From positions 278,596 through 342,595 of the forward strand of contig JAVVEA010000002.1 in assembly GCA_032250835.1 (NCBI GenBank): a stretch of DNA of 64,000 nucleotides, given 5' to 3'. This stretch comes from a bacterium. Lineage in GTDB: Bacteria; SAR324; XYD2-FULL-50-16. The notes below the pieces were generated by a model, which was not told the DNA's origin, searched no databases, and saw only the letters and a program-made list of their open reading frames with translations. Position numbers and translations under genes: made by a program. Shown in pieces: positions 1,540-60,786 of this stretch. The first letter of the stretch is position 1, and every line of letters starts with the position of its first letter.

Positions 1540-2343
1540 TCAGGCCTCATGCCGCTTGATCCAGGCTCGCTCCACCGATTTTTGCAGTTTGTCGTGGTCT
1601 GCCGTATGTTGGCCCGAGACTTTAAGTCGGTCGAAGTAGCTGTCCAACAGTTTTTTTTCCGCCTCGTTGAGCGTGGGCATCACTTCGTCGAAATTATCGC
1701 GTAACTTGACCAGCAGAGGGCCGGGCTGGCGGGTCTCGCGCTGTACCATGGCCTTGATTAAGGCGGGTTGTTTGCTGTCTTTTTTGGCCTTTTCTAAGAT
1801 CTTCAAGGCAAACTCGCGTTCGGCAAAGATTTTACCCACCAGGACCATCACCGTATTTTGGTCGGTCATGCTGGCTTTACCGTCGAGGATCACAAAGGCG
1901 TTGCGCACGTCTTTTTTGCCCAACAGGGTCCGCAGCAGGCTCTGGTGCAGTTCGATCACCGCCGTTCCCTTAGGCAATTCCTTCCAACTAGAACCCAACA
2001 ACCAAACGTCGCGGTTCTGTCCCATCTTGATGCGCTGGTGGCGGATCTTTTCTTTAAGGACTAAATAGCTGTTTTCTTTCATGTCCAAGATAGAGCGCAG
2101 CCCCACGTCCAGGTTCTCGCGCCGCCGAGAGAACTCAACGCCCTTTTTTAGTAACTTGTTGGAGTCCCGCTGGGTGTTGGTGACTAGCCCGACATAATAC
2201 CACTTGCGCAGCAATAGGTAATGCAAGGCGTTCATCGCCTCATTCCAGTTGCGGGTGATCGGCAATTCGTGGGTGAAGCCTTGACCAAGGTCGGCCCCTT
2301 CCAAGTCGTGGATGCTTGGGCCTAAGTGATTGGGTATGGCCAT
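1540..2343 (-). CDS. Hypothetical protein (basic, helical)
   Basis: 267-aa ORF with GGAGGA RBS upstream; no family recognised. Confidence 0.7.
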   Translation of the reverse strand: MAIPNHLGPSIHDLEGADLGQGFTHELPITRNWNEAMNALHYLLLRKWYYVGLVTNTQRDSNKLLKKGVEFSRRRENLDVGLRSILDMKENSYLVLKEKIRHQRIKMGQNRDVWLLGSSWKELPKGTAVIELHQSLLRTLLGKKDVRNAFVILDGKASMTDQNTVMVLVGKIFAEREFALKILEKAKKDSKQPALIKAMVQRETRQPGPLLVKLRDNFDEVMPTLNEAEKKLLDSYFDRLKVSGQHTADHDKLQKSVERAWIKRHEA

Positions 2344-2520
2344 CTTTCCTCCAGGTTGGGGTCTTAGCGTTCAGCGAGAGTCATTTTCCGCTACTTTCTC
2401 TTGCGGGGGGAATGAACTCTAGGGAACTAACCCTAACATGCAGTGGGGTGCTTTTGGAAGGGGAATTTTAGGGCAATCCTCTAAGTAAAGGCATTTACAA
2501 AGGATTTTCAAGGGGCTGGG

Positions 2521-4458
2521 TCAGGAAGTTTCCTGAGGTGGGCGGCTCGGCAAAGTGAACCAAAACTGACTTCCTTCGCCGAGCTGCGATTTTACCCCTA
2601 AGCTGCCGTGATTCTTGTCGATAAATTCCTTCACCAAGATCAACCCCATTCCGGTGCCCGGCTCTTCTTCGGTACCGGGTTGGGAACTCATTTTGGCTTC
2701 GACCTTAAAGAGCTTCGCTTGAACCTGAGGGTCCATACCTAAACCCTTATCGGCGACCCAGCATTTCATTACCGGGCCCTGGATTTCAGCACTCAAGGTG
2801 ATTTGGCCTCCCTTAGGGGTGTATTTTATGGCGTTAGACACAAGGTTTCGCAGTACCGTGTTGGCCATTGAAGGGTCTGCCCAGACTGGCAGTTTTTCGG
2901 GTAGCTGATAAACCAACTCAATTTGTTTGGCCTGGGCGACTGGTTCCAAGACTCGGCGGACCTCGTTGAAAATTAGGTTAAAGTCGAACTCCACGGGGGC
3001 TGGTGCCATCCTCTCAGACTGGCTAGCCGCCCAGGTCAATAAGTTTTCGATCAACCGAGAGAGGTTAGATAGGTAATTTCGGGTCATCAGAAACAGCCGG
3101 TCGTCTAGTTCTGAGGCCTTTTGTAAATGTTCGTTAAAAAGCGTTGATAGGTTGTTGATTGGGCCGCGGAGGTCGTGGCTGATCAGTGAAAAAAACTTGT
3201 TTTTGCTTTGGTTGGCTTCGTTGAGTTGGGCGGTGCGCTCGTTCACCTGGACTTCCAACTGGCTGGCGTATTGGCTGGTTTGCTCTAAAAGTTGGTGGCT
3301 CAATTGCAGAATGCGGCTCGCAATGGCCAAACCAAAGAGGCTCATTTCAATGAGACTGGCCCATTGCAGGGCATCACTGGCTTCGTAAATTTCGAGGTCA
3401 GGCAGCCAGACCCGACAAGCTAATAACAAGATGCTCACCATCAGCGGAGACCAGGCAATTGTATAAATCTTGGCTTCCCGGATGCCGCGCTTGGCTAGAT
3501 ATACGGCGAGCCCAAACATCCACAGACTGACCAATATACCGACCATACTGGTGGCCGTCATGGCCTGGCCAAAGCCCAAAAACCCAGAAAATAGGCTCAA
3601 ACCGGTCAGTACAAGGTACCAAAATCGCTGAACCCAACGGACTTGAGGGATGTGCCGGTTAAGCCCAATAAACTCCCCGCCGAAAACCAAGATACCCAAG
3701 AGGGCGTATATCGAAATCACCAGCGTACTGACCGCGGTAAACTGGGGCCAATGGGGCCATAGATACAGTCTACCCAAGCCGTTGTAGTTGGTGATAAAGA
3801 GCGTGATGCCGCTCAAATAAAACAAGTAGTAGTAGAGTGTTTTTTCGCGCAGCAACAAGGCCATCATCCCGACAAACAAAAAGAGCAACACAAAACCCCC
3901 TAACAACAAGCCCCAGCGCAATAAACGGGCTTGATTGTAATTGGCGTAAGCTTGTGCTTCCCATAAAACCAACGAAACCTCCATCAATTGCCAAGTTTCA
4001 AAGCGCAGGTAGATCTCGTGGGACAAACCGGGTTCAAGGGTTAGGGGCAACGCTTGGCTGGCAGTGTGCAGAGTTACTCGCTCTGGGGGGAGTTGGTTGC
4101 CGCCCTCTAGGTGGACCACGCCGCTGGGGGTCGGTTGGTAAAGGTCTAGTTGCTGGACGAGCCAGAGTTTTTGTTCTAAGACCCAGTCGCGGGTTAGGCC
4201 GGGGGCTAGGTCGAGTTTCAGTCGGATCCAGAGCGCAGGCGAGTCAAACCCTAGGCTCCATACGTCGGTGTGGCTTTGTGGGGTATGCTTAGTGAACGGG
4301 AGTGCACGCACCTCTTCAAAAGACAGGCGTTTACCTTGTTCAAATCGGTACTCTAGGCCGTTCATCAAACGGGTCTGGGGCCCCGAGATCTGGACCGCCC
4401 CAAGGGCAGGCTCAGTGAAAAGGAAGAAAACCGTTAAGAAAGGTAAGAGAACGTTCAA
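2521..4458 (-). CDS. 7TM-DISM sensor histidine kinase (no receiver domain)
   Basis: Signal peptide, DISMED2-like LGFDSPALWIRL, seven hydrophobic segments, H-box SHDLRGP, NLVSNAIKY, GTGMGL; TTG start at 4458 inferred because the upstream ORF extension overlaps the next gene. Confidence 0.85.
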   Translation of the reverse strand: MNVLLPFLTVFFLFTEPALGAVQISGPQTRLMNGLEYRFEQGKRLSFEEVRALPFTKHTPQSHTDVWSLGFDSPALWIRLKLDLAPGLTRDWVLEQKLWLVQQLDLYQPTPSGVVHLEGGNQLPPERVTLHTASQALPLTLEPGLSHEIYLRFETWQLMEVSLVLWEAQAYANYNQARLLRWGLLLGGFVLLFLFVGMMALLLREKTLYYYLFYLSGITLFITNYNGLGRLYLWPHWPQFTAVSTLVISIYALLGILVFGGEFIGLNRHIPQVRWVQRFWYLVLTGLSLFSGFLGFGQAMTATSMVGILVSLWMFGLAVYLAKRGIREAKIYTIAWSPLMVSILLLACRVWLPDLEIYEASDALQWASLIEMSLFGLAIASRILQLSHQLLEQTSQYASQLEVQVNERTAQLNEANQSKNKFFSLISHDLRGPINNLSTLFNEHLQKASELDDRLFLMTRNYLSNLSRLIENLLTWAASQSERMAPAPVEFDFNLIFNEVRRVLEPVAQAKQIELVYQLPEKLPVWADPSMANTVLRNLVSNAIKYTPKGGQITLSAEIQGPVMKCWVADKGLGMDPQVQAKLFKVEAKMSSQPGTEEEPGTGMGLILVKEFIDKNHGSLGVKSQLGEGSQFWFTLPSRPPQETS

Positions 4459-4616
4459 GCAATTCCCCGAAAATTTTTCCGCTAGTTTAACCGAATTAGC
4501 TTGAGCTGTCAGCAACGGCAGGGAGCGAATTGGCAAAGGGCCACGCAACCAACTGAGAGGTATTGAAGGGGGAAGTACCCAGAGGTTCAGGGTCCCAAAA
4601 CATCGCGCAGGTAAAA

Positions 4617-7046
4617 CTAAACTTCTTGCTCCGGGGCGGTTAAGCCTGTAGATCCGGTCCCCAAGGCAAATCGGTCGCCCAACCAATCGAGCAACGCCAT
4701 TTCTAATGGCTCCAACCGGACCGGCTTGGACAAGAGGTCGTTGGCCCCTGATTCTTGGCATTGGGACACCGGGGGGTCCGTCTTGGGGTTGCGCATCATG
4801 ATGATGATCAGTTCCTTTTGCCCCGGTAGGGCGCGGATCGCCTCGCTGGCGACCAAGCCGTCCATCACGGGCATACTGCAATCGATCAACAACAGGTCAA
4901 AGGTTTGCCGGCTACAAAGATGTAGGGCCTCTTGTCCGGTTGTGCAGCTTTGGATATCTAATCGGTGGCGGCTTAAATAAGAGAGCAATATCTTGCGGCT
5001 AATCCGGTCGTCTTCGGCGACCAATACCTTGGGCAGACGTGTTGATTCGTCCAGTTCGTGCTGCGCGAAAATGGGTACCTGATAGCTATCTTCAAGACTC
5101 TCTAAAGTGACTTCAAAATAGGCCTGCGTCCCCTTACCTAACTGACTTTCAAGCCAAAGCCGCCCCCCCATCAACTCGGCCAACTGAGAGGCCAAGGTTA
5201 GGCCCAACCCGGCGCCACCGAAGGATTTCCGGGTGGAAAGGTCGGCTTGGTTGAAGGGGGTAAAGAGCCCAGATATCTTTTCTGGCGCGATGCCGATCCC
5301 TCGGTCGCTGACCTTAAAGAGCAGCTTCCAGTGATTTTCAACGGCGAATTCGCCGCTAACCATTAGCTCTACCGGTCCGTGGTTACTGAATTTGATGGCG
5401 TTGCTTAGCAGGTTGCCCAGGACTTGTTGGAGGTGCCGCAAGTCTCCGTTTAAATGTTTGGGTAAGGTCTCGGCGACCTCAAATTTTAGCTCTATGCCCT
5501 TTTCTAAAGCTGCCGGGGTGAAAAGCGCAATGGACTGCTCGAGCGCCTCAGTTAAGGAAAAGGGTGCTTGGTTGGTCGGCATCCGCCCCTTTTGGACCGC
5601 CGAAAGATCCAAGATGTCGCAGATGATGTCTAACAATCCATGACTAGATTGGCTTAAAATTTGGAGCAGTTCGTCTTGCTCTGGGTCCAAGCCAGTGCCT
5701 TGGAGCGCTTCAGCAACGCCGATGATCCCGTTCAGCGGCGTGCGCAATTCGTGGCTCATGTTGTTCAAAAATTCGCCCCGGGCCCGGTCGGTTTCTTTGA
5801 GCTGGGCGATCAATTCGCGTTGGGCGGCGGTTTTTTCCTGTTCTGATTCGAGCAGGCGCAGGCGAGTGCCGTTGAAACGGTCGGCTATGGCTAGGCTAAG
5901 CAGGAGGATCTCCAATCCAGAACCGAACAACATCCCGTGGCGCACCAAAAAAACGGGCGGTAACAGACCCATGGCCTTGAGGCTATATAAAACAATGCCC
6001 AACAAAAAAAGACTCCACCCGGCCAGATAAAAACGGGCCGCGCGGTTGCCTTGCCAGAATCGTTGTAAACCAACGCCAAAAGCCACCGCCGCCGCCGGTA
6101 TGCTGAGGAGTACCGATCCTTGGATGGCCCAGGAAAAGGGCCCCAAGAGCGACAGCAAAACCACCGTTCCGCCCAGCCCGATGACCCAACCCAATAGGCG
6201 GTCTAGCCAACTCCGCTCATCGCCCATCAAGGACTTGATGAAAGCGCCCACGAAGACGATGGTCAAGCCCACGTTGAGCGGGCGGGCCAGCTTATTCCAT
6301 TGGGGCCAGTCGGGCCAAAAGTATTCAAAGGCATAGCCCGTCAAGGTGGCCACCACGAGGCTAAAACTGACCACATAGGCCACATAATAAAGGTATATCC
6401 GCTCTCGGTTCAGCAAGAAGAGGATCGAGTTAAATAACGCCATCACCAGCACCATGCCAAAATACAGCCCCATGCCCAACTGCTCGATCCGGTCGTCGCG
6501 GTAGAAGTCCTCTGGGAGTTGCAGGCTCAACGGGATTTCTAGGGTATCGCGGCTTTGGACTCGGAGGTAGACAACGATCGATTCGTTCGGCGCTAAATGC
6601 AGCGGGAAGACAAACTGGTGGTGGGGTAAGGGGCGCTCCTTAAAGGGGCGGGCATCGCCGGTGTGCGCTTGAAACTGGATTCCTTCGGGGCCGACAAAAT
6701 AGACTTGCAGGTCGTCGATCAAAGGGTAGGCAAAGACCAACCGCCAGTCGCTGGGGCTGTCTTGCCCATTTTTCAAAGGCAATCTGGCCCAATAGACCGA
6801 GTCGGTAAACCCAAAGTTGGGCGTACCATTGACCTGAAAGAAACGACCTCCAAGCTCCGCTTGGCGGACTTGGTCTAAGGTAAGGTTGCCTTGGGGGTCC
6901 TCTAGGACTTCCAAACTCCCGCTGAGGTCGCTCACCGAGTGAATCCCCAGCCAGAGCGGCTCGGACCGGAGGTTTCCGGCGTAGGCCGTTAAGGCGAAGA
7001 GAACCAGTAGGAAGATATTAAAGCTTTTTGGCAGAAATCCCGTCAT
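4617..7046 (-). CDS. 7TM-DISM hybrid histidine kinase with receiver
   Basis: PNFGFTDSVYWARL (7TMR-DISMED2), 7TM region, SHELRTPLN, NLLSNAIKF, GAGLGL, C-terminal receiver. Confidence 0.92.
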   Translation of the reverse strand: MTGFLPKSFNIFLLVLFALTAYAGNLRSEPLWLGIHSVSDLSGSLEVLEDPQGNLTLDQVRQAELGGRFFQVNGTPNFGFTDSVYWARLPLKNGQDSPSDWRLVFAYPLIDDLQVYFVGPEGIQFQAHTGDARPFKERPLPHHQFVFPLHLAPNESIVVYLRVQSRDTLEIPLSLQLPEDFYRDDRIEQLGMGLYFGMVLVMALFNSILFLLNRERIYLYYVAYVVSFSLVVATLTGYAFEYFWPDWPQWNKLARPLNVGLTIVFVGAFIKSLMGDERSWLDRLLGWVIGLGGTVVLLSLLGPFSWAIQGSVLLSIPAAAVAFGVGLQRFWQGNRAARFYLAGWSLFLLGIVLYSLKAMGLLPPVFLVRHGMLFGSGLEILLLSLAIADRFNGTRLRLLESEQEKTAAQRELIAQLKETDRARGEFLNNMSHELRTPLNGIIGVAEALQGTGLDPEQDELLQILSQSSHGLLDIICDILDLSAVQKGRMPTNQAPFSLTEALEQSIALFTPAALEKGIELKFEVAETLPKHLNGDLRHLQQVLGNLLSNAIKFSNHGPVELMVSGEFAVENHWKLLFKVSDRGIGIAPEKISGLFTPFNQADLSTRKSFGGAGLGLTLASQLAELMGGRLWLESQLGKGTQAYFEVTLESLEDSYQVPIFAQHELDESTRLPKVLVAEDDRISRKILLSYLSRHRLDIQSCTTGQEALHLCSRQTFDLLLIDCSMPVMDGLVASEAIRALPGQKELIIIMMRNPKTDPPVSQCQESGANDLLSKPVRLEPLEMALLDWLGDRFALGTGSTGLTAPEQEV

Positions 7047-14504: not shown

Positions 14505-14749
14505 GGCCTCGAAGCCCTAGGTCTGTAGGAATATTTTTATAGGGAAGTTGGCTTCGCCAACGGCTTGGGTCTGGCGCCACTCGCCGGCTCGCGTCGCTAC
14601 GCCCGTCGCCCTCGGCCTGCGGCCTCGAAGCTCTAGGTCTGTAGGAATATTTTTATAGGGAAGTTGGCTTCGCCAACGGCTTGGGTCTGGCACCACTCGC
14701 CGGCTCGCGTCGCTACGCCCGTCGCCCTCGGCCTGCGGCCTCGAAGCTC
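14505..14749. repeat. Tandem repeat, 116-bp period (~2.1 copies), REP-like hairpin family
   Basis: GGCCTCGAAGC recurs at 14505, 14621 and 14737; contains hairpins GTTGGC-TTC-GCCAAC, GCGT-CGCT-ACGC and GGCC-TGC-GGCC. Confidence 0.92.
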
Positions 14750-14760
14750 CTTGGCGTGCG

Positions 14761-28527: not shown

Positions 28528-28755
28528 GGCTCGCGTCGCTACGCCCACAGCCCTCGCTTCGCTACTTGAATTTTCTGTGGGGATGTTGGCTTCGCCAACG
28601 CTTATGGTCTGACGACCCTCGCCGGCTCGCGTCGCTACGCACGCAGCCCTCGCTTCGCTACTTGAATTTTCTGTGGGGATGTTGGCTTCGCCAACGCTTA
28701 TGGTCTGACGACCCTCGCCGGCTCGCGTCGCTACGCACGCAGCCCTCGCTTCGCT
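28528..28755. repeat. Tandem repeat, 96-bp period (~2.4 copies), REP-like hairpin family
   Basis: GGCTCGCGTCGCTACGC recurs at 28528, 28624 and 28720. Confidence 0.92.
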
Positions 28756-28770
28756 CGGTGCTGCTTAGCG

Positions 28771-28860
28771 TGGCGGAGAGACGGGGATTCGAACCCCGGG
28801 ACCCGTTTCCAGGTCACTTGATTAGCAATCAAGCCCATTCGGCCACTCTGGCATCTCTCC
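28771..28860 (-). tRNA. tRNA-Ser(GCT)
   Basis: GGAGAGA acceptor, CTTGA-TTGCTAA-TCAAG anticodon arm, long variable arm, GTTCGAATC, ends GCCA. Confidence 0.95.
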
Positions 28861-49447: not shown

Positions 49448-49981
49448 ATGAGCAAAACCATCTCCTTAGATGCCTTCCGCAAGAAGAAGGAACAAGAAGA
49501 ATCCAAATACCAATCCGAGCCGATCTGGGGCACCTTGGTTTGGCTCTATTGTCCGGCCTGCGATAAGCTAGAATATACCGAAATACGCGCGCCCAACGGA
49601 CGCAGCCACAAATGCGGCACCCAGGTGCAAGAGCGGGAGGTGGAACTGGACCTTCGTGGTGAGTTGACCTTGACCCAAGCCAACCTCTTGCGGATCGATC
49701 ATCTGCTGGCCGAGGCGAGCAAAAATCGGCTTAAAAAACTATTGGCCCGGTCGATGGAAAACACGCTAAAGATGTTAAAGACCAGCGAATTAACCTACGC
49801 TGAGCGTCTGAGCATGGCCGCAGGAGGGTTTTTAGAACCTTACCCTGAGCCTCTTGAAGACATTGCCGAGCGATTGCCCATTGCCGAAACCAACGCCCTG
49901 GGCTTGTTTATTTCTCCCTTCCGGCTCAATCCGGAAGAGCGTTTTGACCTAAAAGGACCCAGCACCCCAGAGCCCCAATGA
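49448..49981 (+). CDS. Hypothetical protein with putative Zn ribbon
   Basis: LYCPACD...HKCG; tightly coupled to both neighbours. Confidence 0.65.
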   Translation: MSKTISLDAFRKKKEQEESKYQSEPIWGTLVWLYCPACDKLEYTEIRAPNGRSHKCGTQVQEREVELDLRGELTLTQANLLRIDHLLAEASKNRLKKLLARSMENTLKMLKTSELTYAERLSMAAGGFLEPYPEPLEDIAERLPIAETNALGLFISPFRLNPEERFDLKGPSTPEPQ

Positions 49982-50676
49982 TTAAAGCCTCGGAAACGGT
50001 CAACGCCGTATCTCATTTGTTTTGTGAAGCCACCAAAGAGGTGGTTGAGGCCGCCACCGGCGAGGAGGTGACCTACTCGGACACCATGCAGATGATCCCC
50101 TCGATCCATCTGCGCCCCGATATTGGCTGCTTCGTGCTCTTCTCGGGCGACTATTCGGGCTTGATGATCATGAATTTTACCGGTGCCGCAGCGCTGGAAA
50201 TCTACAAAAAGAGCATGCTCAAGATGGGCATGCCCGAAGACGAGCTTTCCACCGAATACACGGCTGATGAGGTAGTCAACGGCATCGGCGAGTTGATCAA
50301 CCAAACCATCGGCACCGTGCGCCGCCGGATCGAAGAACAATACCATTTGGTGGCCCACAACACCCAGCCCAAGGCCATCGCCCTCAACTCAGCCATTGTG
50401 CTCAACATCGACTCGCGCGACCCTTCGAGCCAAGAGCTTTGCCGCCGGTTGGCCTTTAAAGTCGCCGGAAAAAGCTTCCATATCGAGTTGTCTTTAGAGC
50501 GCAGCGAGTTCGTCCGCTTCGACGGCGGCAACGCCCACACCTCCGTGGGCCCCAAATCCAACCGAGACATCAACCTAGACGACTACCGCGAACAAGCCGC
50601 CGCCCCTGAAGCCGCCCCCGCCGCACCGGTGGAATTAGATTTCGACGCCCTACAGCGGCAGATGGAAGGGGGGTAG
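49978..50676 (+). CDS. DUF3334-family protein (CheX-like)
   Basis: PDIGCFVLFSGDYSGL..MNF...AALEIY...MGMPEDEL...DEV...GELINQ. Confidence 0.78.
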   Translation: MIKASETVNAVSHLFCEATKEVVEAATGEEVTYSDTMQMIPSIHLRPDIGCFVLFSGDYSGLMIMNFTGAAALEIYKKSMLKMGMPEDELSTEYTADEVVNGIGELINQTIGTVRRRIEEQYHLVAHNTQPKAIALNSAIVLNIDSRDPSSQELCRRLAFKVAGKSFHIELSLERSEFVRFDGGNAHTSVGPKSNRDINLDDYREQAAAPEAAPAAPVELDFDALQRQMEGG

Positions 50677-50839
50677 GGGGCTCTTCTCCTCTCGCTGCTA
50701 CAAGGGGGCCAGTTGGTCCCTTTCTCCACCCTTTAGTGGTTGCTCCTCGCTGGTACAGCTTGGGGCCCGGCCTTGTCTAGCCGGGATTTAGCAAGCAAGC
50801 GCCGCTTGAGGGCGCGAGATTCCCCAATAAAGCGAAAGA

Positions 50840-51299
50840 CTCTTTCCTTCTGGCAATGGGGAGCACGAAACTACGGGACGAAAAAGAGAGATGGGATTAC
50901 TTTCTTTGGCAGGCAAAGAAAGTAACAAAGAAACCTGCCCCCAGGCGGCTCGCCGCTAAGAGCCCCTACGCCAAGCTACGCTAAAAGCCAAAACTCGCCC
51001 TCGCTACGCTCGAAGCTCGAACAGTTGGCATTTGGCTGGGCAATACTCGCCGGCTCGCATTGCTACCCACGCAGCCCTCGGCCTGCGGCCTCGAAGCTGC
51101 TTAGCGTGGCTACGGGCTCTAAGCGCCTCACCAACGGGGGTATCAATAGCCAAAAAGCTTCAAGCCCTCGGCCTGACAGCCTCGAGGCTACTTAGCGCAG
51201 CTAGGGGCTCTAAGCCGCTCGCAAAAGGGATCCCAAGAGCCGTACACCGCAAGTTGTGGGTTTTACCGCTGCAAAAACAGGTAACTGTCACCGGATTTT
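50840..51299 (-). repeat. Long structured non-coding element, copy A (inverted relative to B and C)
   Basis: 50887-50940 is the exact reverse complement of 54370-54423, and 51200-51230 of 54144-54174; 51268-51299 matches 54075-54106 at 27/32. Confidence 0.9.
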
Positions 51300-51616
51300 A
51301 AACTGCCACCTGATTTCTATGCTGAAAGTATTCAACTTATCCATATGCCCCACTTCCCGTAAATTAGTTGAAAGAGGAATCTGCGTGCGTAATAATGGCT
51401 TTGCCGCGAGCCGCTTTTTTCGCTGCAATTAGCTCAGGCTGGGGGCCATCGATTTTCCCCATTTTCGGGCTACCGATCTCTTGAGGACTATGCGAACATG
51501 CCAGACAATACAGGATACACGGCTGAGGCTCTAGAATTTGGGAGCAACTGGAATTTAGCAAAGAAGTGTTTCCTAGAAGAGTCTCCAAAATATAACCCTC
51601 TAAAATATTTTTAAAT

Positions 51617-52645
51617 ATGGAACTGATTGAATATATTATCTCATATGAAGAGAATGACAGAACCGTACTATCTGCAGATCAAACCGATGATTTAAGTGAC
51701 TGGATAAGCGATACGCATAAGGCGGCGGGTACAGACACTCGAGAATGTTCTTTTCAGTCGGATACTGTAGAGTCATTTAGCCTCTTTCAAGCGCTTGTTA
51801 AGAAAGAGAAAACAATGGGCGAGGTAGCAGATCGACTAAGCGAGATGCTACTTTCGGCAATGATCGCTTCAAACCCACCTAAATCCATTCCCAAGTGTAG
51901 GTTTACCGTCTGTTTGGATATAAGTAATTCTGCAATTGTCTTGTCGCTAGCCGATTATAATAAAATTATTGATGAAACGCACACAAAGCGCCGTGGCCCA
52001 GCTTATGATAAGAGGTTTAATCGACTTCGTAGTTGTGTAGTGCCAATCCGGATTGGTCAACCAGAGCTACATGTCAATATTACTGGCACTCAGGATTATT
52101 GGATCAAGGACTTTTTGAGTTTGCGGGTAAAACGAACGGATTTCGCCAACTCGGATACCCTCTATCGCGCTGTATCTCAAGTCTATAGTCAAAACCTAAC
52201 TAAGTTTAAAGCAGATAGGTCCTTACTCCTTGCCGAACTTGTGCGGGCTATTCGAGATCATGGTCAAAAAATAAATCCAAGAGATTTACCTGAAAAAATT
52301 AAGACATACCATCCGGTTGATAGTACTCTTGATATAAATGCTCTTTCTGAAAAAGTTCGCAAGGCAATTGATAAAAAAATCAATAAAGGAGAATTGGATG
52401 CGGAATTTAATTCTGATAAAGATGCTGTTAAGGGGAAGCACGCAACTTCCATTCACCATATTAAAAACGGCATTACTTTAACGGTCAATATTGATGATGC
52501 CGATTTAAAATCGTCTGTCTATAGGCTGAAAAACGGAGATCAGGAAGGCATATTTATACCTGTAAATGGGGCAGAAGGAGATACGATTACTTGGGAGAAA
52601 CCGGTAGAGACTATTGATGCAGCTGACGCAACGGACGGGCAATGA
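51617..52645 (+). CDS. Putative nucleoid-associated protein (YejK/NdpA-like, divergent)
   Basis: 342 aa; YWIKDFLSL....TD..NS motif and length resemble the 37-kDa nucleoid-associated family; AT-rich. ORF is solid, family call tentative. Confidence 0.55.
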   Translation: MELIEYIISYEENDRTVLSADQTDDLSDWISDTHKAAGTDTRECSFQSDTVESFSLFQALVKKEKTMGEVADRLSEMLLSAMIASNPPKSIPKCRFTVCLDISNSAIVLSLADYNKIIDETHTKRRGPAYDKRFNRLRSCVVPIRIGQPELHVNITGTQDYWIKDFLSLRVKRTDFANSDTLYRAVSQVYSQNLTKFKADRSLLLAELVRAIRDHGQKINPRDLPEKIKTYHPVDSTLDINALSEKVRKAIDKKINKGELDAEFNSDKDAVKGKHATSIHHIKNGITLTVNIDDADLKSSVYRLKNGDQEGIFIPVNGAEGDTITWEKPVETIDAADATDGQ

Positions 52646-54063
52646 GCCTGACCAATTCACTAATTAATTGCTTTGAAGGACGTATTGATGTTTCGGTAAA
52701 GGAAACGTTCTACGAATATTCCATTTCATTTTCGATTGACCTAACTTCGATAGAAGTAAAAGCGGATCAGCTCGTAGAAGTGCTGAAAGGGGTTAAGGAT
52801 CAATGGGAAATCAGTTTTTTTGATTATTCTGCTCAATTTGCCCGAGACACAAACTATCAAGTTGATTTGACTGTGTATCTGAGTGGGTTAAAGGATGATC
52901 AAGTCGATTCAGCGCCGACTAAACTATTGATCAAAAAGGAGTCTGAAAATGGCGAAATTATTTGTTACGATGCGAATGCATTTGTCGACTCCTTAAAAGC
53001 TGACCCGACAATCGTAATAGCTCAGTTCGGTACTCTGAAAAGGAAGTTGAGTACACTTAGGTTGCGATGTTTTGACGGGTCCAACGCACCTGGAACGTCA
53101 TTCCTAAATGCGACTGATAATGCACGCTTTGTTCAGTCAATAGACTGGGGCGTCCTTTTCCAGGATGCTCATTTTGAACAGTACAAGGATTACCCATTTC
53201 AGCCGGGAGACTTTTTCCTACAGCGGGAGACAGGGAGTAAGTCCCTTAATCGCATAATGAATTGGTGGACATTGGCAATGTCGATTTGCCTTACTGCAAA
53301 TACGTCTTCGATAAGTTATGACAAGCAGACTCGCAGGTTTTTACTGAAGGCCGTCTTCCATGGAGTAAAGCCAGTAAATATTGAATTAAGCTCGACGACC
53401 CAAGTCTCCTATAATTTAGCAAATGCCTGGAAAGATTACTCAGACTGGGTATTTGACGGCCCTGGTATATCGGGACGTCTTGGAGTTTTTCGCAACGTTT
53501 ACACAAATAGTGCACAAGATGGGAAGCTAGGCTATTACGACCTGCTAAAGCCAGTAAAACAAGCGTTTTCAGTATATTTGAAAACTAATGCCAAAGACTA
53601 TGTAGAGATTCATAAAAAAATATTGGATAACATTGATCTAATGTCGAAAAACGCTCAATCAGCGGCAGATTCATTTTCAGCCAATTTTCGGACTGGATTT
53701 CTAGTGTCCCTAGGTTACTGCATAATGGCATTTTTCATTAAGTACCAGTCATCTAATAGGCTGTTTTCGCAGGAGTCATTGATTATCGGGACTGTATTGT
53801 GGTTTGTCGGGATTTTGCACCTCTGTTTAATGTGCTATCTGGCGCGGCAGGATCAGAAGCTTTTACGGAAAAATCAAGAAAAAGCAATGAATTCCTTCTC
53901 TGCCTTACTCCAGACTAAGGAGTTTGAAGAATCTTTTAGCGAGCCATTTCATGAAATCAATCACTCGTTAAAAGATAAGCTTGAGGTTTATGGGTTTCTT
54001 TGGGGTATCACACTCATTCTTTTTCTCGTTTTCTTGATCTGGGGATTCAGTTTGGTGTCGTAG
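52642..54063 (+). CDS. Hypothetical membrane protein (large soluble N-domain, three C-terminal TM helices)
   Basis: ATGA overlap with upstream gene; hydrophobic segments GFLVSLGYCIMAFFI, LIIGTVLWFVGILHLCLMCYL and FLWGITLILFLVFLIWGF; AT-rich. Confidence 0.8.
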   Translation: MSLTNSLINCFEGRIDVSVKETFYEYSISFSIDLTSIEVKADQLVEVLKGVKDQWEISFFDYSAQFARDTNYQVDLTVYLSGLKDDQVDSAPTKLLIKKESENGEIICYDANAFVDSLKADPTIVIAQFGTLKRKLSTLRLRCFDGSNAPGTSFLNATDNARFVQSIDWGVLFQDAHFEQYKDYPFQPGDFFLQRETGSKSLNRIMNWWTLAMSICLTANTSSISYDKQTRRFLLKAVFHGVKPVNIELSSTTQVSYNLANAWKDYSDWVFDGPGISGRLGVFRNVYTNSAQDGKLGYYDLLKPVKQAFSVYLKTNAKDYVEIHKKILDNIDLMSKNAQSAADSFSANFRTGFLVSLGYCIMAFFIKYQSSNRLFSQESLIIGTVLWFVGILHLCLMCYLARQDQKLLRKNQEKAMNSFSALLQTKEFEESFSEPFHEINHSLKDKLEVYGFLWGITLILFLVFLIWGFSLVS

Positions 54064-54074
54064 ATGAGGGCTTG

Positions 54075-54469
54075 AAAATTCGGGGACAGTCACCTATTTC
54101 TGCAGCCATATATTTGGAGACCCGCGGATTACGCTCCTTGGGTTCCCTTTTGCGAGCGGCTTAGAGCCCCTAGCCGAAAGGAGTGTAAAAAAAGCCAAAC
54201 TGTCTGAGCTTCGAGCATGGAGAGTCGGCTTCGCCGACGGTTAACATGAGCAACACTCGCCGGCTCGCGTCGCTACGCCCGCAGCCCTCACTTCGTTCGG
54301 TGCTGCTTGGCGGGGCGAGTTTTTGGCTTTTAGCGAGTGAGGCGTAGGGGGTCTTTGCCGCGAAGGTGAGGGCAGGTTTCTTTGTTACTTTCTTTGCCTG
54401 CCAAAGAAAGTAATCCCATCTCTTTAATTCCTTCCGTAGTTTTGCGCTCCCCAGTACCAGAAAAGAGAG
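54075..54469 (+). repeat. Long structured non-coding element, copy B
   Basis: Starts 11 bp after the cassette stop codon; inverted match to copy A; nested REP-like unit at ~54222-54308. Confidence 0.9.
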
Positions 54470-54489
54470 ATCACCTTTGCCAATACAAC

Positions 54490-54612
54490 GCTCACCGGTT
54501 CGCGTCGCTACGCACTCAGCCCTCGGCGCTGATATGTTCTAAGGGAATGTTGGCATCGCCAACGGCTTTGGTCTGGCAACCGCTGGTTCGCGTTGCTACG
54601 CACGCAGCCCCT
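54490..54612. repeat. Degenerate REP-like hairpin repeat (~1.4 units)
   Basis: GGTTCGCGTCGCTACGCAC...GTTGGCATCGCCAACGG...GGTTCGCGTTGCTACGCACGCAGCCC. Confidence 0.8.
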
Positions 54613-54706
54613 CCGGCCCCCAACCCCAACCCCGCTTTGCGCCTTGGCAGGGGCCACCCCTATTTGGTAAGCTGCTCCCAGAGCAACCCCCCTCCCTTGA
54701 GGTCCT

Positions 54707-56230
54707 ATGGCGGATCAAGCTTACCAGATTGCGGTGATCGGCGGCGGTATCAACGGCGCAGGCATCGCCCGTGAGGCGGCCTATCGAGGTTATCGCACCC
54801 TCCTAGTAGAGCAGGGCGACTTCGCCCAAGCCACCAGCAGCCAGTCTTCCAAACTGATCCATGGCGGCATCCGCTACCTAGAACAAGGCCGCCTGGGTTT
54901 GGTCTTTGAAGCCCTGCACGAGCGCGCCCATCTACTGCGCATTGCCCCCCATCTGGTCCACCCGCTCCGGCTGCATATCCCTGTATACCAAGGCGACGCC
55001 CGCCCCCCCTGGATGATCGGGATCGGCTGTTGGCTCTATGACCTCTTAGCCGGAAGCCGCAACCTAGAGCCCAGCCGACGGGTGCCCCCCAGCGAATGGG
55101 AACAACTGGGCGGGCTTCAGCGAGAAGGCCTCAAAGCGGTCTTCGCCTATTCAGATGCCCAAGTTTTTGATGCCCGCTTAACTCTAGAAACCGCTCTGTC
55201 TGCGGCCCAAGCGGGGGCCGATATTTTTAACTACACCTCCCTTGAGGCCGCCCAAAACCAAGGCGATGGCTGGCTTTTGGAATTAAAAGACCAGCGCAAC
55301 GGGCAAAGCCGCCAAATCCAAGCTCAGGTGGTGGTCAACGCGGCGGGAGCCTGGGCCCCCCAGTTGGACTCCTGGTTCACTCAAAAAAAGAAACGGCCCG
55401 GATTGCGCTTTTCTCGGGGTATCCATCTGGTCTTCGATGGGCCCGCCACCCCGCAGCCCGCATACTTGACGCTGCCCGAAGGGGGCCGGGTGGTTTTTGT
55501 TTTGCCCTGGATGGGTAAGACCCTGGTGGGCACCACCGAATCGGACTTTACCGACCCGCCCACCGCCAAGGTGCCGCCCAGCGAAGAGGAAATCAATTAT
55601 CTGCTAAAGGTTTACGGGCACTACTTCCCCCAGCTAAAGCCCCAGCGAGAGCAAGTCCGCTACATCCATTCGGGCCTGCGCTCCCTGATCGACCGGGGCG
55701 AACGGGACTTAGGCAAGATGTCTCGTGAAGCGCAGTTCGAAGGGGAACAACTGCCCGGCGGGGCCGCCTATTGGTTGGTATTAGGTGGCAAGATCACCAC
55801 CTACCGCAGTCTGGGGCGCAAGCTCCTGGACCAACTGGGCCGCTGGAATCCCTCGGACCGGCGGGCTCATCTGGATACCGCCGTCGAGCCCTTGCCCGGT
55901 GCGGAACCGCTGGATCAAACCCGCCTGTCTAAAGCCCGAGCCGACTTGGCCCAAGCCGGGCTGGGTCCGGCCCAAGAAGCCCGGTGGGTCGCCGCCTATG
56001 GGACCCGCTGGGTGCAGGTGGCTCGTTATTTACGCTACCGCGACACCAACGAAGACCTGACGGGGCAGGGCTTTCTGCGGGCCGAACTGCGTTATTTGGT
56101 GCAGCAAGAGATGGCCTGGACCTTGGACGACATTACCCAGCGGCGTACCCTGATGGCCTACGACCTGAAACCTGAGCAAATCAGAATATTGTCCAGAGCC
56201 TTAACAGAAGAGCGGCGCTGGAAGCCTTAA
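54707..56230 (+). CDS. glpD: FAD-dependent glycerol-3-phosphate dehydrogenase/oxidase
   Basis: IGGGINGAGIAREAA.RG, TSSQSSKLIHGGIRYLE, VVNAAGAW, GGKITTYR. Confidence 0.9.
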   Translation: MADQAYQIAVIGGGINGAGIAREAAYRGYRTLLVEQGDFAQATSSQSSKLIHGGIRYLEQGRLGLVFEALHERAHLLRIAPHLVHPLRLHIPVYQGDARPPWMIGIGCWLYDLLAGSRNLEPSRRVPPSEWEQLGGLQREGLKAVFAYSDAQVFDARLTLETALSAAQAGADIFNYTSLEAAQNQGDGWLLELKDQRNGQSRQIQAQVVVNAAGAWAPQLDSWFTQKKKRPGLRFSRGIHLVFDGPATPQPAYLTLPEGGRVVFVLPWMGKTLVGTTESDFTDPPTAKVPPSEEEINYLLKVYGHYFPQLKPQREQVRYIHSGLRSLIDRGERDLGKMSREAQFEGEQLPGGAAYWLVLGGKITTYRSLGRKLLDQLGRWNPSDRRAHLDTAVEPLPGAEPLDQTRLSKARADLAQAGLGPAQEARWVAAYGTRWVQVARYLRYRDTNEDLTGQGFLRAELRYLVQQEMAWTLDDITQRRTLMAYDLKPEQIRILSRALTEERRWKP

Positions 56231-60139: not shown

Positions 60140-60680
60140 TTCCCCTTTTTTGCGAGCAGCTTAGAGCCCATATAGCCACGCTAAGCAGCTTCGAGGCCGC
60201 AGGCCGAGGGCTACGTGGGTGGCAATACGAGCCGGCGAGTATTGCCCAGCCAAAAAGCCCGCTGTTCGAGCACTGAGCATAAGAAATAGACTTCAACGAC
60301 CTTTTTATATGGGGCAACCCTCGCATCGCTACGGACTCGAAGCTCCTTGGTGGTTAGGGCCTTTATGATACCCCCGTTGGTGAGTCGCTTAGAGCCCGTA
60401 GCCAAACGAAGCGTTAAGAAAGCCAACTGTTCGAGCTTCGAGCGTTAGGGAGTCGGCTTCGCCGACGGCTTACATGAGCAACACTCGCCAGCTCGCGTCG
60501 CTACGCCCGCAGCCCTCACTTCGTTCGGTGCTGCTTGGCGGGGCGAGTTTTGGCTTTTAGCGTAGTTTGGCGTACGGGGTCTTAGCGGCGAGCCACCTGG
60601 GGGCTGGTTTTTTTGCTACTTTTTTTGCCAGCCAAAAAAAGTAGTCCCATCCCTTCAATTCGAACAATAGCTTTGTGCTT
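60140..60680 (+). repeat. Long structured non-coding element, copy C (with nested REP-like units)
   Basis: Shares GCTTAGAGCCC, CTGTTCGAGCTTCGAGC, GGCGAGTTTTGGCTTTTAGCG and the pseudoknot-shaped motif (60602-60644) with copies A and B. Confidence 0.88.
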
Positions 60681-60786
60681 CTCATAACTCGAATGGCAAA
60701 GCTACGCCCATCGCTGTTTGGCTAAGATTTGCTTGAAAGTTGCTGTGCTGAATCGGTTGCGCCGAGTTTTCATGTGGGCAACCGCC

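Follow-up and report, generated by a model that had tools for sequence, protein, structure and literature searches.

A low-GC two-gene operon between inverted BIME-like repeat mosaics with probable REP tips in a SAR324 genome

Background

We describe here a locus in which a low-GC two-gene operon lies between two inverted clusters of dispersed repeats, in the genome of an uncultured bacterium of the SAR324 lineage. The known repeats which come closest to these clusters are the repetitive extragenic palindromes (REP) and the bacterial interspersed mosaic elements (BIME) of enterobacteria, the latter reportedly described by Gilson in 1991. Together with REP doublets forming hairpins (REPIN) and with the REP-associated tyrosine transposases (RAYT), REPs make up systems called "REPtrons" (described in the available parts of Nunvar 2010, PMC2817692, and of Bertels & Rainey 2011, PMC3116915 and PMC3337134). 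A toxin-antitoxin (TA) operon of Photorhabdus is reported to sit between palindromes resembling the res sites of Tn3, while relatives without the operon keep a single site (PMC13617665, in its accessible part). As for the operon, the nearest described system is PANGU type II, which, as outlined in the accessible part of 10.64898/2026.04.06.716658, consists of a sensor, the YejK-like nucleoid-associated protein (NAP) Pag2A, and of a transmembrane effector, Pag2B.

The stretch analysed, called the window below, is 64,000 nt long (GenBank assembly GCA_032250835.1, contig JAVVEA010000002.1, positions 278,596 to 342,595 of the forward strand); coordinates without a contig name are those of the window. 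Its source genome is designated G000 (3.66 Mb, 43 contigs, 97% complete) and C-numbers designate the contigs of G000, the window belonging to C22. We concluded that the locus is very probably made of BIME-like mosaics tipped by a REP and placed in inverted orientation around a horizontally acquired PANGU type II-like two-gene operon, predicted to be anti-phage. Judged jointly with this identification, and just as strongly suggested by the comparison of sequences, the REP, of about 26 nt, would belong to the single predicted RAYT of the genome.

Layout of the locus and mosaic nature of its arms

The low-GC cargo (51300 to 54074, plus strand) has a GC content of 0.412, to be compared with 0.563 and 0.534 in the two arms and 0.544 in the window, and it is unique in the genome, BLAST returning only its match to itself. 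The arms contain inverted blocks which match exactly, of 54 bp (50887-50940 / 54370-54423) and of 31 bp (51200-51230 / 54144-54174), and they end on the side of the cargo in inverted 32-mers (51268-51299 / 54075-54106) which are identical at 27 positions out of 32, the right one beginning 11 nt past the stop codon of the second gene (gene B, stop codon 54061-54063). The two blocks, the 27/32 identity of the inner ends and the distance of 11 nt had been given in a preliminary description of the window, along with a contrast, estimated by eye, between genes of roughly 40% GC and surroundings of about 55% GC, and they were recovered when we recomputed them. A repeat finder extended the blocks to inverted arms of 96 nt (50848-50943 / 54367-54462, 90%) and of 51 nt (51200-51250 / 54124-54174, 88%), with two weaker arms between them.

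The preliminary description saw in the arms one long structured element present in two inverted copies. The inverted arrangement stands, but the arms are differently assembled mosaics. Comparing both of them to the whole genome with BLAST, we obtained 37 repeat clusters, the map of which displays three kinds of modules: module A (about 150-190 nt), a GC-rich REP-like unit (about 70 nt) and module D (about 100 nt). Module D always follows module A, in the same orientation. The GC-rich unit is the commonest module and also forms free-standing arrays; its coverage reaches 49 matches at left-arm query positions 221-231 (sampled in 10-nt steps). The modules recombine freely among the 37 clusters and the two arms combine them differently, each arm being nearer to copies located elsewhere (up to 90% identity) than to the other arm (77-84%). 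This family of modules is specific to the lineage: we counted 108 matches in G000 and one weak match in 18 other genomes of the family, and metagenomes scanned for a 21-nt block of module D contained no match.

The left arm, all on the plus strand, begins with module A (50848-51033), which appears as inverted-repeat arm I1 in the output of the repeat finder, on the BLAST map and in an alignment of 19 copies. It continues with a GC-rich REP-like unit (51037-51110, direct-repeat family D1 of the repeat finder, also on the map), with two direct copies, 80% identical, of a 51-nt unit (51088-51138 and 51179-51229, direct-repeat family D2) and with module D (51200-51267), which consists of the conserved block GCTAGGGGCTCTAAGCCGCTCGCAAAAGGGA and of the bases following it in an alignment of 10 copies. 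It ends in the REP (X, 51268-51299), the GATTT end of which points toward the cargo, and a partial second copy of the REP, AACTGCCACCTGATT, is found with an offset of 18 nt at 51301-51315 (plus strand, C22:329896-329910). In the right arm, the REP (X', 54075-54106, minus strand) is again at the tip on the side of the cargo and is followed by module D (54107-54174, minus strand, inverted arm I2, from the alignment of copies). Then come a GC-rich REP-like unit oriented opposite to the rest of the arm (54247-54316, plus strand, family D1, C22:332842-332911) and module A (54313-54462, minus strand, from the repeat finder and the map), with a hairpin core (54367-54417) shared with the left arm. Two more GC-rich units (54482-54524 and 54570-54612, plus strand, D1) lie beyond the unit as it was first delimited.

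The preliminary description also took the arms to be structured. Whole arms do not fold better than their shuffled versions (z -0.47 and -1.03), but part of module A, which has about 19 copies of at least 90 nt in the genome, does carry a structure. Its core (50897-50938, plus strand) is a 12-bp hairpin (50897-50908 / 50914-50925) whose 5-nt loop (50909-50913) pairs with 50934-50938, forming a second helix; its fold as DNA has an energy of -13.2 kcal/mol and a z of -4.2. Among 11 distinct copies, 6 of the 17 pairs of this core of about 45 nt show compensatory changes and 98.9% of the cells are paired. None of 500 shuffles reached its covariation score, and controls in which the structure was slid along the alignment had 0-1 compensated pairs. 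Hence, the core of module A is demonstrably a real structure.

In the arms, then, REPs occur together with further conserved motifs whose order varies, as is the case at many intergenic sites (the 37 clusters): the arms are BIME-like mosaics of dispersed repeat modules. The window holds a third cluster of the same family (60148-60685, minus strand, C22:338743-339280, modules A and C) and arrays of the GC-rich unit at 14578-14758 (C22:293173-293353) and 28528-28775 (C22:307123-307370).

The REP motif and its predicted transposase

The similarity among copies of module D ends at ...CCTGATTT. A profile of this terminus describes a motif of about 26 nt, AAAAATAGGTATACTGTCACCTGATTT, which is found well outside the elements made of modules A and D. 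In G000 this motif has 61 nhmmer matches at E<1; searched as a pattern, it has 65 matches while its reversed control has 1, and its location, judged from calls of open reading frames (ORF), is mostly extragenic. A single REP is barely palindromic (fold z 0.56 and -0.54).

The preliminary description had predicted that a Y1/RAYT gene with the same ends would exist elsewhere in the genome, and such a gene is indeed present. A search for Y1_Tnp gave exactly one match in the genome, a 219-aa ORF at C43:2516-3175 (PF01797, 44.4 bits for a cut-off of 23). Reading its translation, we assigned to it the motifs NHIHLL (the 'HIH' form of HUH) and RYVERNP; compared to PDB sequences, it had no match. Inverted copies of the REP flank this ORF at about 2441-2464 and about 3163-3193, with their GATTT ends pointing outwards. 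The same outward flanks accompany the orthologues of the predicted RAYT in 3 out of 3 of the fetched loci which contained one, in genomes G015 (63% identity), G033 (43%) and that of locus L059 (42%). Around the gene of G000, which lies in low-GC DNA, we noted a cold-shock-like ORF upstream (C43, 2102-2362, identified by reading) and another ORF downstream (3193-3621); in G015, a GFA-family gene stands directly upstream of the orthologue (L115, 3241-3840).

Across relatives, the number of REPs tracks the presence of the RAYT. G015, where the gene is intact, has 75 matches; G017, where it is partial, has 21; G004, where the orthologue (G004:C38:3448-3960) is interrupted by two stops, has 13; and G003, the closest relative (97% complete), has neither a REP match nor a RAYT orthologue. 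As a separate observation, G012 carries two full-length copies of the RAYT (on its C66 and C20, 54% and 53% identity), yet only 3 REP matches.

An exact-match scan of a collection of species genomes found a 19-mer of the REP in 50 loci. Simple arithmetic gives about 9 matches expected by chance in this collection, so that an isolated match in Bacteroidota or in a comparable group means little. We also considered a spread of REP and RAYT across phyla and dropped it: the SAR324 metagenome-assembled genome (MAG) G031 is the same genome as the family member G015. This means that the system belongs to this family and that a crossing of phyla is unsupported.

Orientation of the REPs and low-GC cassettes

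The REPs are not oriented at random with respect to composition. Over the 1 kb which follows the GATTT end, the GC content is at most 0.46 for 20 of 58 REPs, located at 11 distinct segments; in the 1 kb behind the REP this holds for 5 of 58, and in the genome at large for 2.2% of 1-kb windows (Wilcoxon p 8e-5). The idea, already advanced in the preliminary description, of a non-random orientation toward variable low-GC cargo was thereby borne out. The two outcomes which it named as contrary to its proposal, namely relatives carrying the same genes without the elements and a random orientation of the elements without any link to variable cargo, were not encountered.

Taking consecutive REPs two by two, we found 9 outward pairs, one of which encloses the RAYT and 6 of which are doublets of 65-112 nt resembling REPINs; one doublet, from G015, was folded, with a z of -9.7. 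There are 12 inward pairs, which enclose 0.7-5.4 kb, and 6 of the enclosed segments have a GC content of at most 0.44. The genes between inward REPs are accessory genes of defence or TA type, several of them from families without a name; they include a TIR/ThsB-like gene, a pair of a phospholipase D (PLD)-type protein and a helicase with weak matches to ZacA/ZacB, a UDG-like gene, CopG, HigB, ParE and HicB. The last gene of the low-GC cassettes typically ends 5-53 nt from the REP (for instance 9, 39, 30, 5, 15 and 53 nt), and tandem partial copies of the REP are seen at the junctions. C14 has three cassettes with REP doublets between them. An inverted pair of A-D elements without any cargo exists at C38:81010-81888, its left REP being missing. 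We saw no conserved target motif beyond the GATTT end.

Similar arrays exist in G015 (L113 3900-7100, L114 1900-17900, G015:C84), where small cassettes are split by REP doublets or triplets and contain VapBC, MazE-PIN, HEPN-NTase, GNAT, glyoxalase, GrpB and methyltransferases. One of them is a 698-bp vapBC cassette between two REP doublets (L114 3918-4615), of which a copy, 95% identical, is located on another contig (L194 2380-3077). This second copy has no REPs: the two copies cease to be homologous before the REPs are reached, about 80 nt short of them at one end and about 30 nt at the other. The array of G015 is too divergent from G004 and G036 for an informative comparison, and the cassettes of G000 have only one weak match among the other REP-bearing loci.

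Several further cassettes of G000 deserve to be mentioned. A four-gene low-GC island (L120, C40:143001-150048, positions 1556-6723 of the locus) encodes a C5 DNA methylase, a PRTase-CE, an ORC/CDC6-like protein and a CARF-like protein; an integrase fragment adjoins its beginning, and a REP follows its end at a distance of 15 nt. A 4.6-kb low-GC pair (L033, C41:111001-120000, positions 2121-6312) encodes an 847-aa protein with a PLD domain and a 551-aa protein, with weak PADLOC matches to ZacB and ZacA; it has two tandem REPs on one side and a REP doublet on the other. Two REP-bounded two-gene cassettes of low GC (L031, C38:149001-155000, positions 2511-4377, 184 and 439 aa; L032, on C41, positions 1323-2911, 263 and 266 aa) encode proteins for which Pfam and PADLOC gave no match.

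The cargo operon and its flanks

The cargo consists of gene A (51617-52645, plus strand, 342 aa), a YejK/NA37-like NAP, and of gene B (52642-54063, plus strand, 473 aa), a member of an unnamed family with C-terminal hydrophobic helices, the start of gene B overlapping the stop of gene A by 4 nt. Neither protein gave anything significant against Pfam, NCBIfam or PADLOC, gene A itself missing Pfam NA37, and in a word-index homology search each found only itself. The assignment of gene A as YejK-like relies on relatives and on predicted structure: it falls with NA37 clusters of the Atlas (TM 0.69), NA37 is matched in Pfam by 4 of the 29 members of its family, and in a Foldseek search against PDB with an alignment-based AF2 model (pLDDT 75.4) the only match at E<=0.001 is E. 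coli YejK (9be2, E 7.4e-5). The profile of the gene A family had 3 weak matches among PDB sequences (E 0.04-0.77), none of them YejK. An AlphaFold model built from the single sequence (pLDDT 34.8) was unusable and was discarded.

The family of gene B has 391 representatives at E<=1e-3; the hydrophobic segments of the cargo protein are at residues 380-398 and 455-473, and PADLOC found nothing consistent on 30 members of the family. In 29 of the 66 loci fetched with the alignment of B, a homologue of gene A lies directly upstream of the homologue of gene B; the distance between the two ranges from -101 to +14 nt and is mostly within -8 to +14. Among these loci are some from Bacteroidota, Bacillota and Pseudomonadota and one on a contig labelled as a Promethearchaeota archaeon MAG (L125 1371-4000). 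In the 66 loci no convincing REP motif was found, three of them having matches with 2 mismatches.

REPs elsewhere act as 3' hairpins or insulators, and by analogy the one located 11 nt past the stop codon of the cargo probably acts as such too. Between the left REP and gene A, the 316-nt leader contains an antisense ORF of 74 aa (51364-51588, minus strand) without any family match.

On the left, the cargo and its arms are flanked by a DUF3334/CheX-like core gene (49978-50676, plus strand, Pfam PF11813, E 1.1e-49, GC 0.575) and on the right by a core gene for a glpD-like FAD oxidoreductase (54707-56230, plus strand, Pfam DAO E 6.4e-52 and DAO_C, GC 0.610). The block 942 aa-DUF350-180 aa-DUF3334, of which the DUF3334 gene is the last, is kept in 8 of the 8 relatives fetched. 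The preliminary description had suggested comparing the interval between DUF3334 and glpD in relatives: in all 8, synteny ends just after the block. It had also stated that no transposase or integrase lies in or beside the unit. We likewise found no recombinase gene there, and the matches counted over the genome (rve 1, Phage_integrase 6, DDE_Tnp_1 2, Y1_Tnp 1) are all on contigs other than C22. Rfam gave no match at E<=1 over positions 50000-55000, ARAGORN found no tRNA or tmRNA, and the counts of a promoter and terminator scan remained inside the range of shuffles.

How the association may have arisen

Several readings may account for the association of REPs and cargo. The one we favour, while holding it only tentatively and at somewhat less than even odds, is that REP-tipped repeats already resident mark out a slot, in which recombination inserts cassettes or replaces them. 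The RAYT would disperse the REP-tipped repeats, which would then stay in place and delimit an intergenic slot. Foreign cassettes would enter this slot, or replace others, between two inward REPs, by recombination at or near the REPs; this could happen through homologous exchange with the DNA of kin bearing the same repeats, or through repair at a palindromic junction. The cargo would then neither be a transposon of its own nor be excised by the RAYT in the manner of a REPIN.

Four observations argue for a slot rather than for a vehicle. The arms have the native GC content and differ from each other by 16-23%, while the cargo is at 0.41. The inverted pair of C38 exists without cargo. The polarity of the REPs around the cargo is opposite to the one seen around the RAYT gene and in doublets, which places the cargo outside, and not inside, REPIN-type units. 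Finally, the vapBC cassette of G015 is duplicated without its REPs.

A number of points speak against this interpretation. The predicted RAYT scores 63 bits against the NCBIfam model REP_Tyr_transpos (profile positions 3-146 of 146), below the equivalog cut-off of 80 bits. Nine REP matches seeded the model, and when they are set aside 13 of 49 face low GC; moreover the REP statistics are not independent, several matches flanking one and the same cassette, and the ORF counts are plain ORF calls and not gene predictions. AT-richness is a property of the REP itself and of the RAYT locus, so REPs may simply fit or target AT-rich DNA. No GC contrast across the REP was seen in the other genomes carrying it. 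Among the low-GC islands of at least 1 kb, 52 of 60 have no arm repeat within 600 bp (8 of 60 have one), hence cargo can arrive without these repeats. A single empty inverted pair was found, and it lacks its left REP. Since the 8 relatives all lose synteny past DUF3334, they offer no allele of the DUF3334-glpD interval that would be empty or hold another cargo, and the metagenome scan with the block of module D provided no allele from kin.

Next to the slot, and with a distinctly smaller probability, of about one quarter, comes a secondary colonisation: the cargo would have arrived first by an unrelated route, and REP elements and REPINs spread by the RAYT would later have inserted at its non-coding edges, either as a result of a preference of the enzyme for AT-rich or hairpin targets at the ends of operons, or through insertions being tolerated only there. 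REPINs are mobile non-autonomous elements of extragenic space, according to the available parts of PMC3116915 and PMC3337134, the REP is AT-rich and the RAYT resides in low-GC DNA. The end of a gene is at most 90 nt away from 23 of 61 REPs on their GATTT side, but from only 11 of 61 on the opposite side. The duplicated cassette of G015 excludes the REPs. However, this scenario needs, for each cassette, two independent and correctly oriented insertions of composites of 250-450 bp, and it needs them at several cassettes (the one of the window, C38:150-153 kb and C13:46-47 kb). The absence of a visible target motif beyond the GATTT end and the existence of an inverted pair without cargo also speak against it.

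We consider as unlikely, slightly more so than the preceding scenario, a capture or exchange unit served in trans. The RAYT would cleave single-stranded DNA at the REP tips and join the REP-bounded DNA, so that cassettes between inward REPs would be inserted, excised or swapped, as in an HUH analogue of the traffic of integron cassettes. The existence of a predicted RAYT with the same ends, the fixed polarity, the tight boundaries (the 5-53 nt reported above), the tandem partial copies at junctions and the arrays of C14 and G015 split by doublets, with an integron-like content in G015, are consistent with it. This is also the function which the preliminary description had attributed to the elements, and there it fared less well. 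Neither a junction, a circle or an empty site of the cargo, or of any cassette of G000, nor a second copy in the genome or in other REP-bearing loci was found; the cargo is outside the polarity of REPIN-type units; the duplicated vapBC has no REPs at its second site; most low-GC islands (52 of 60) have no arm repeats; and in all 66 loci of relatives of gene B the REP motif is unconvincing. None of the results demonstrates that the enzyme mobilises the cassettes.

It is very improbable that the whole 3.6-kb unit of arm, cargo and arm is a non-autonomous transposon with long terminal inverted repeats, moved by a DDE-type transposase acting at its outer ends: inverted arms of about 0.4-0.46 kb with an exact 54-bp block near the outer ends do evoke one, but the cargo is single-copy, copies of the arms have ragged outer ends, positions 50848 / 54462 show no direct duplication, either arm has better matches elsewhere (up to 90%) than in its partner (77-84%) and the few DDE genes of the genome are not near. 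Thus defined termini, a target-site duplication and more than one copy, by which non-autonomous transposons such as miniature inverted-repeat transposable elements are recognised, are not seen here. Equally improbable is a chance juxtaposition, that is, an ordinary foreign operon in a repeat-rich intergenic region, for which one may invoke the 37 clusters of the genome and the several present in the window alone, but against which the association of orientation and GC recurs at 11 segments (20 of 58 REPs for a background of 2.2%).

Many anti-phage systems are found as bare cassettes amid core genes, and nothing about them indicates how they arrived. Here, a repeat family of the host with an identifiable cognate enzyme marks, with a fixed polarity, the edges of at least 11 low-GC segments, which makes the association of REPs and RAYT a concrete candidate for the landing site or the machinery of such cassettes. 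In a doubtful extension, the REP tips and the single RAYT would form a trans-acting docking or exchange system for defence and TA cassettes, the HUH counterpart of the integron; if true, this would explain how "naked" defence operons without mobility genes enter fixed slots with a constant polarity. If the repeats are only passive neighbours, the locus still teaches, and this matters for annotation, that a low-GC operon may lie between inverted repeats which are not the ends of a transposon. An uncultured SAR324-type lineage is also added to those with a REP-RAYT system, and the list of PANGU II-like operons gains one.

Comparison with known systems

The cargo is PANGU type II-like by its architecture, compared with Pag2A and Pag2B through their description in the accessible part of the source: it is bicistronic, with a NAP of the YejK fold first and an overlapping second gene with transmembrane segments, and its operon is widely distributed in variable contexts. 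It differs in that gene A by itself misses Pfam NA37, and its role in defence is a prediction.

Several known arrangements place accessory genes between recombination sites. IS200/IS605 insertion sequences have subterminal hairpins which are recognised by a Y1 HUH enzyme, and they can hold passenger genes within their ends; here, in contrast, the RAYT is outside the unit, and the repeats flank the cargo with a polarity opposite to the one around the RAYT gene. The pdif modules of Acinetobacter plasmids are accessory modules between recombination sites served in trans. The res-flanked operon of Photorhabdus, as presented in the part of PMC13617665 at hand, resembles our locus as a small accessory operon without its own recombinase between two palindromic sites. 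These two cases differ from ours in that their sites belong to resolvases or Xer and that empty alleles have been reported, whereas here the site belongs to a RAYT.

As in integrons with their attC sites, short accessory cassettes, promoter-poor or self-contained, are each closely followed by a structured repeat and are sometimes arrayed. However, the repeats are here inverted around the cassettes and not direct, and the enzyme tied to them is an HUH transposase and not a tyrosine recombinase. Compared by eye with the attC consensus, the REP motif shows no core site of attC type; of the 6 Phage_integrase matches in the genome none is on C22 or C14, no search having been aimed at an integron integrase.

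Like the BIMEs of enterobacteria, as described in the available part of PMC2817692, the arms are intergenic clusters in which REPs and other short conserved motifs are put together in an order and an orientation that vary. Unlike them, they are built from different, lineage-specific modules, one of which has a covarying hairpin and a second helix.

With the REP/REPIN-RAYT systems, G000 shares a Y1/HUH transposase gene which is single-copy and stands between inverted short repeats. Tens of copies of this repeat are scattered over the genome, mostly beside the ends of genes and in part paired as inverted doublets, and among relatives their number follows the presence of the RAYT. A full-text search of the literature returned no description of an association between REPs or RAYT and defence or TA cassettes, and PMC2884548, considered as a precedent for cassettes "flanked by REP", was rejected as it concerns generic repeats. 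The differences are that the single REP of G000 is barely palindromic, that its consensus, inspected against the available part of PMC3733652, has no GTAG or CGTC tag, that it is often fused to a composite of 250-450 bp made of modules A and D, and that it is strongly associated, in a polarity-specific way, with low-GC defence and TA cassettes.

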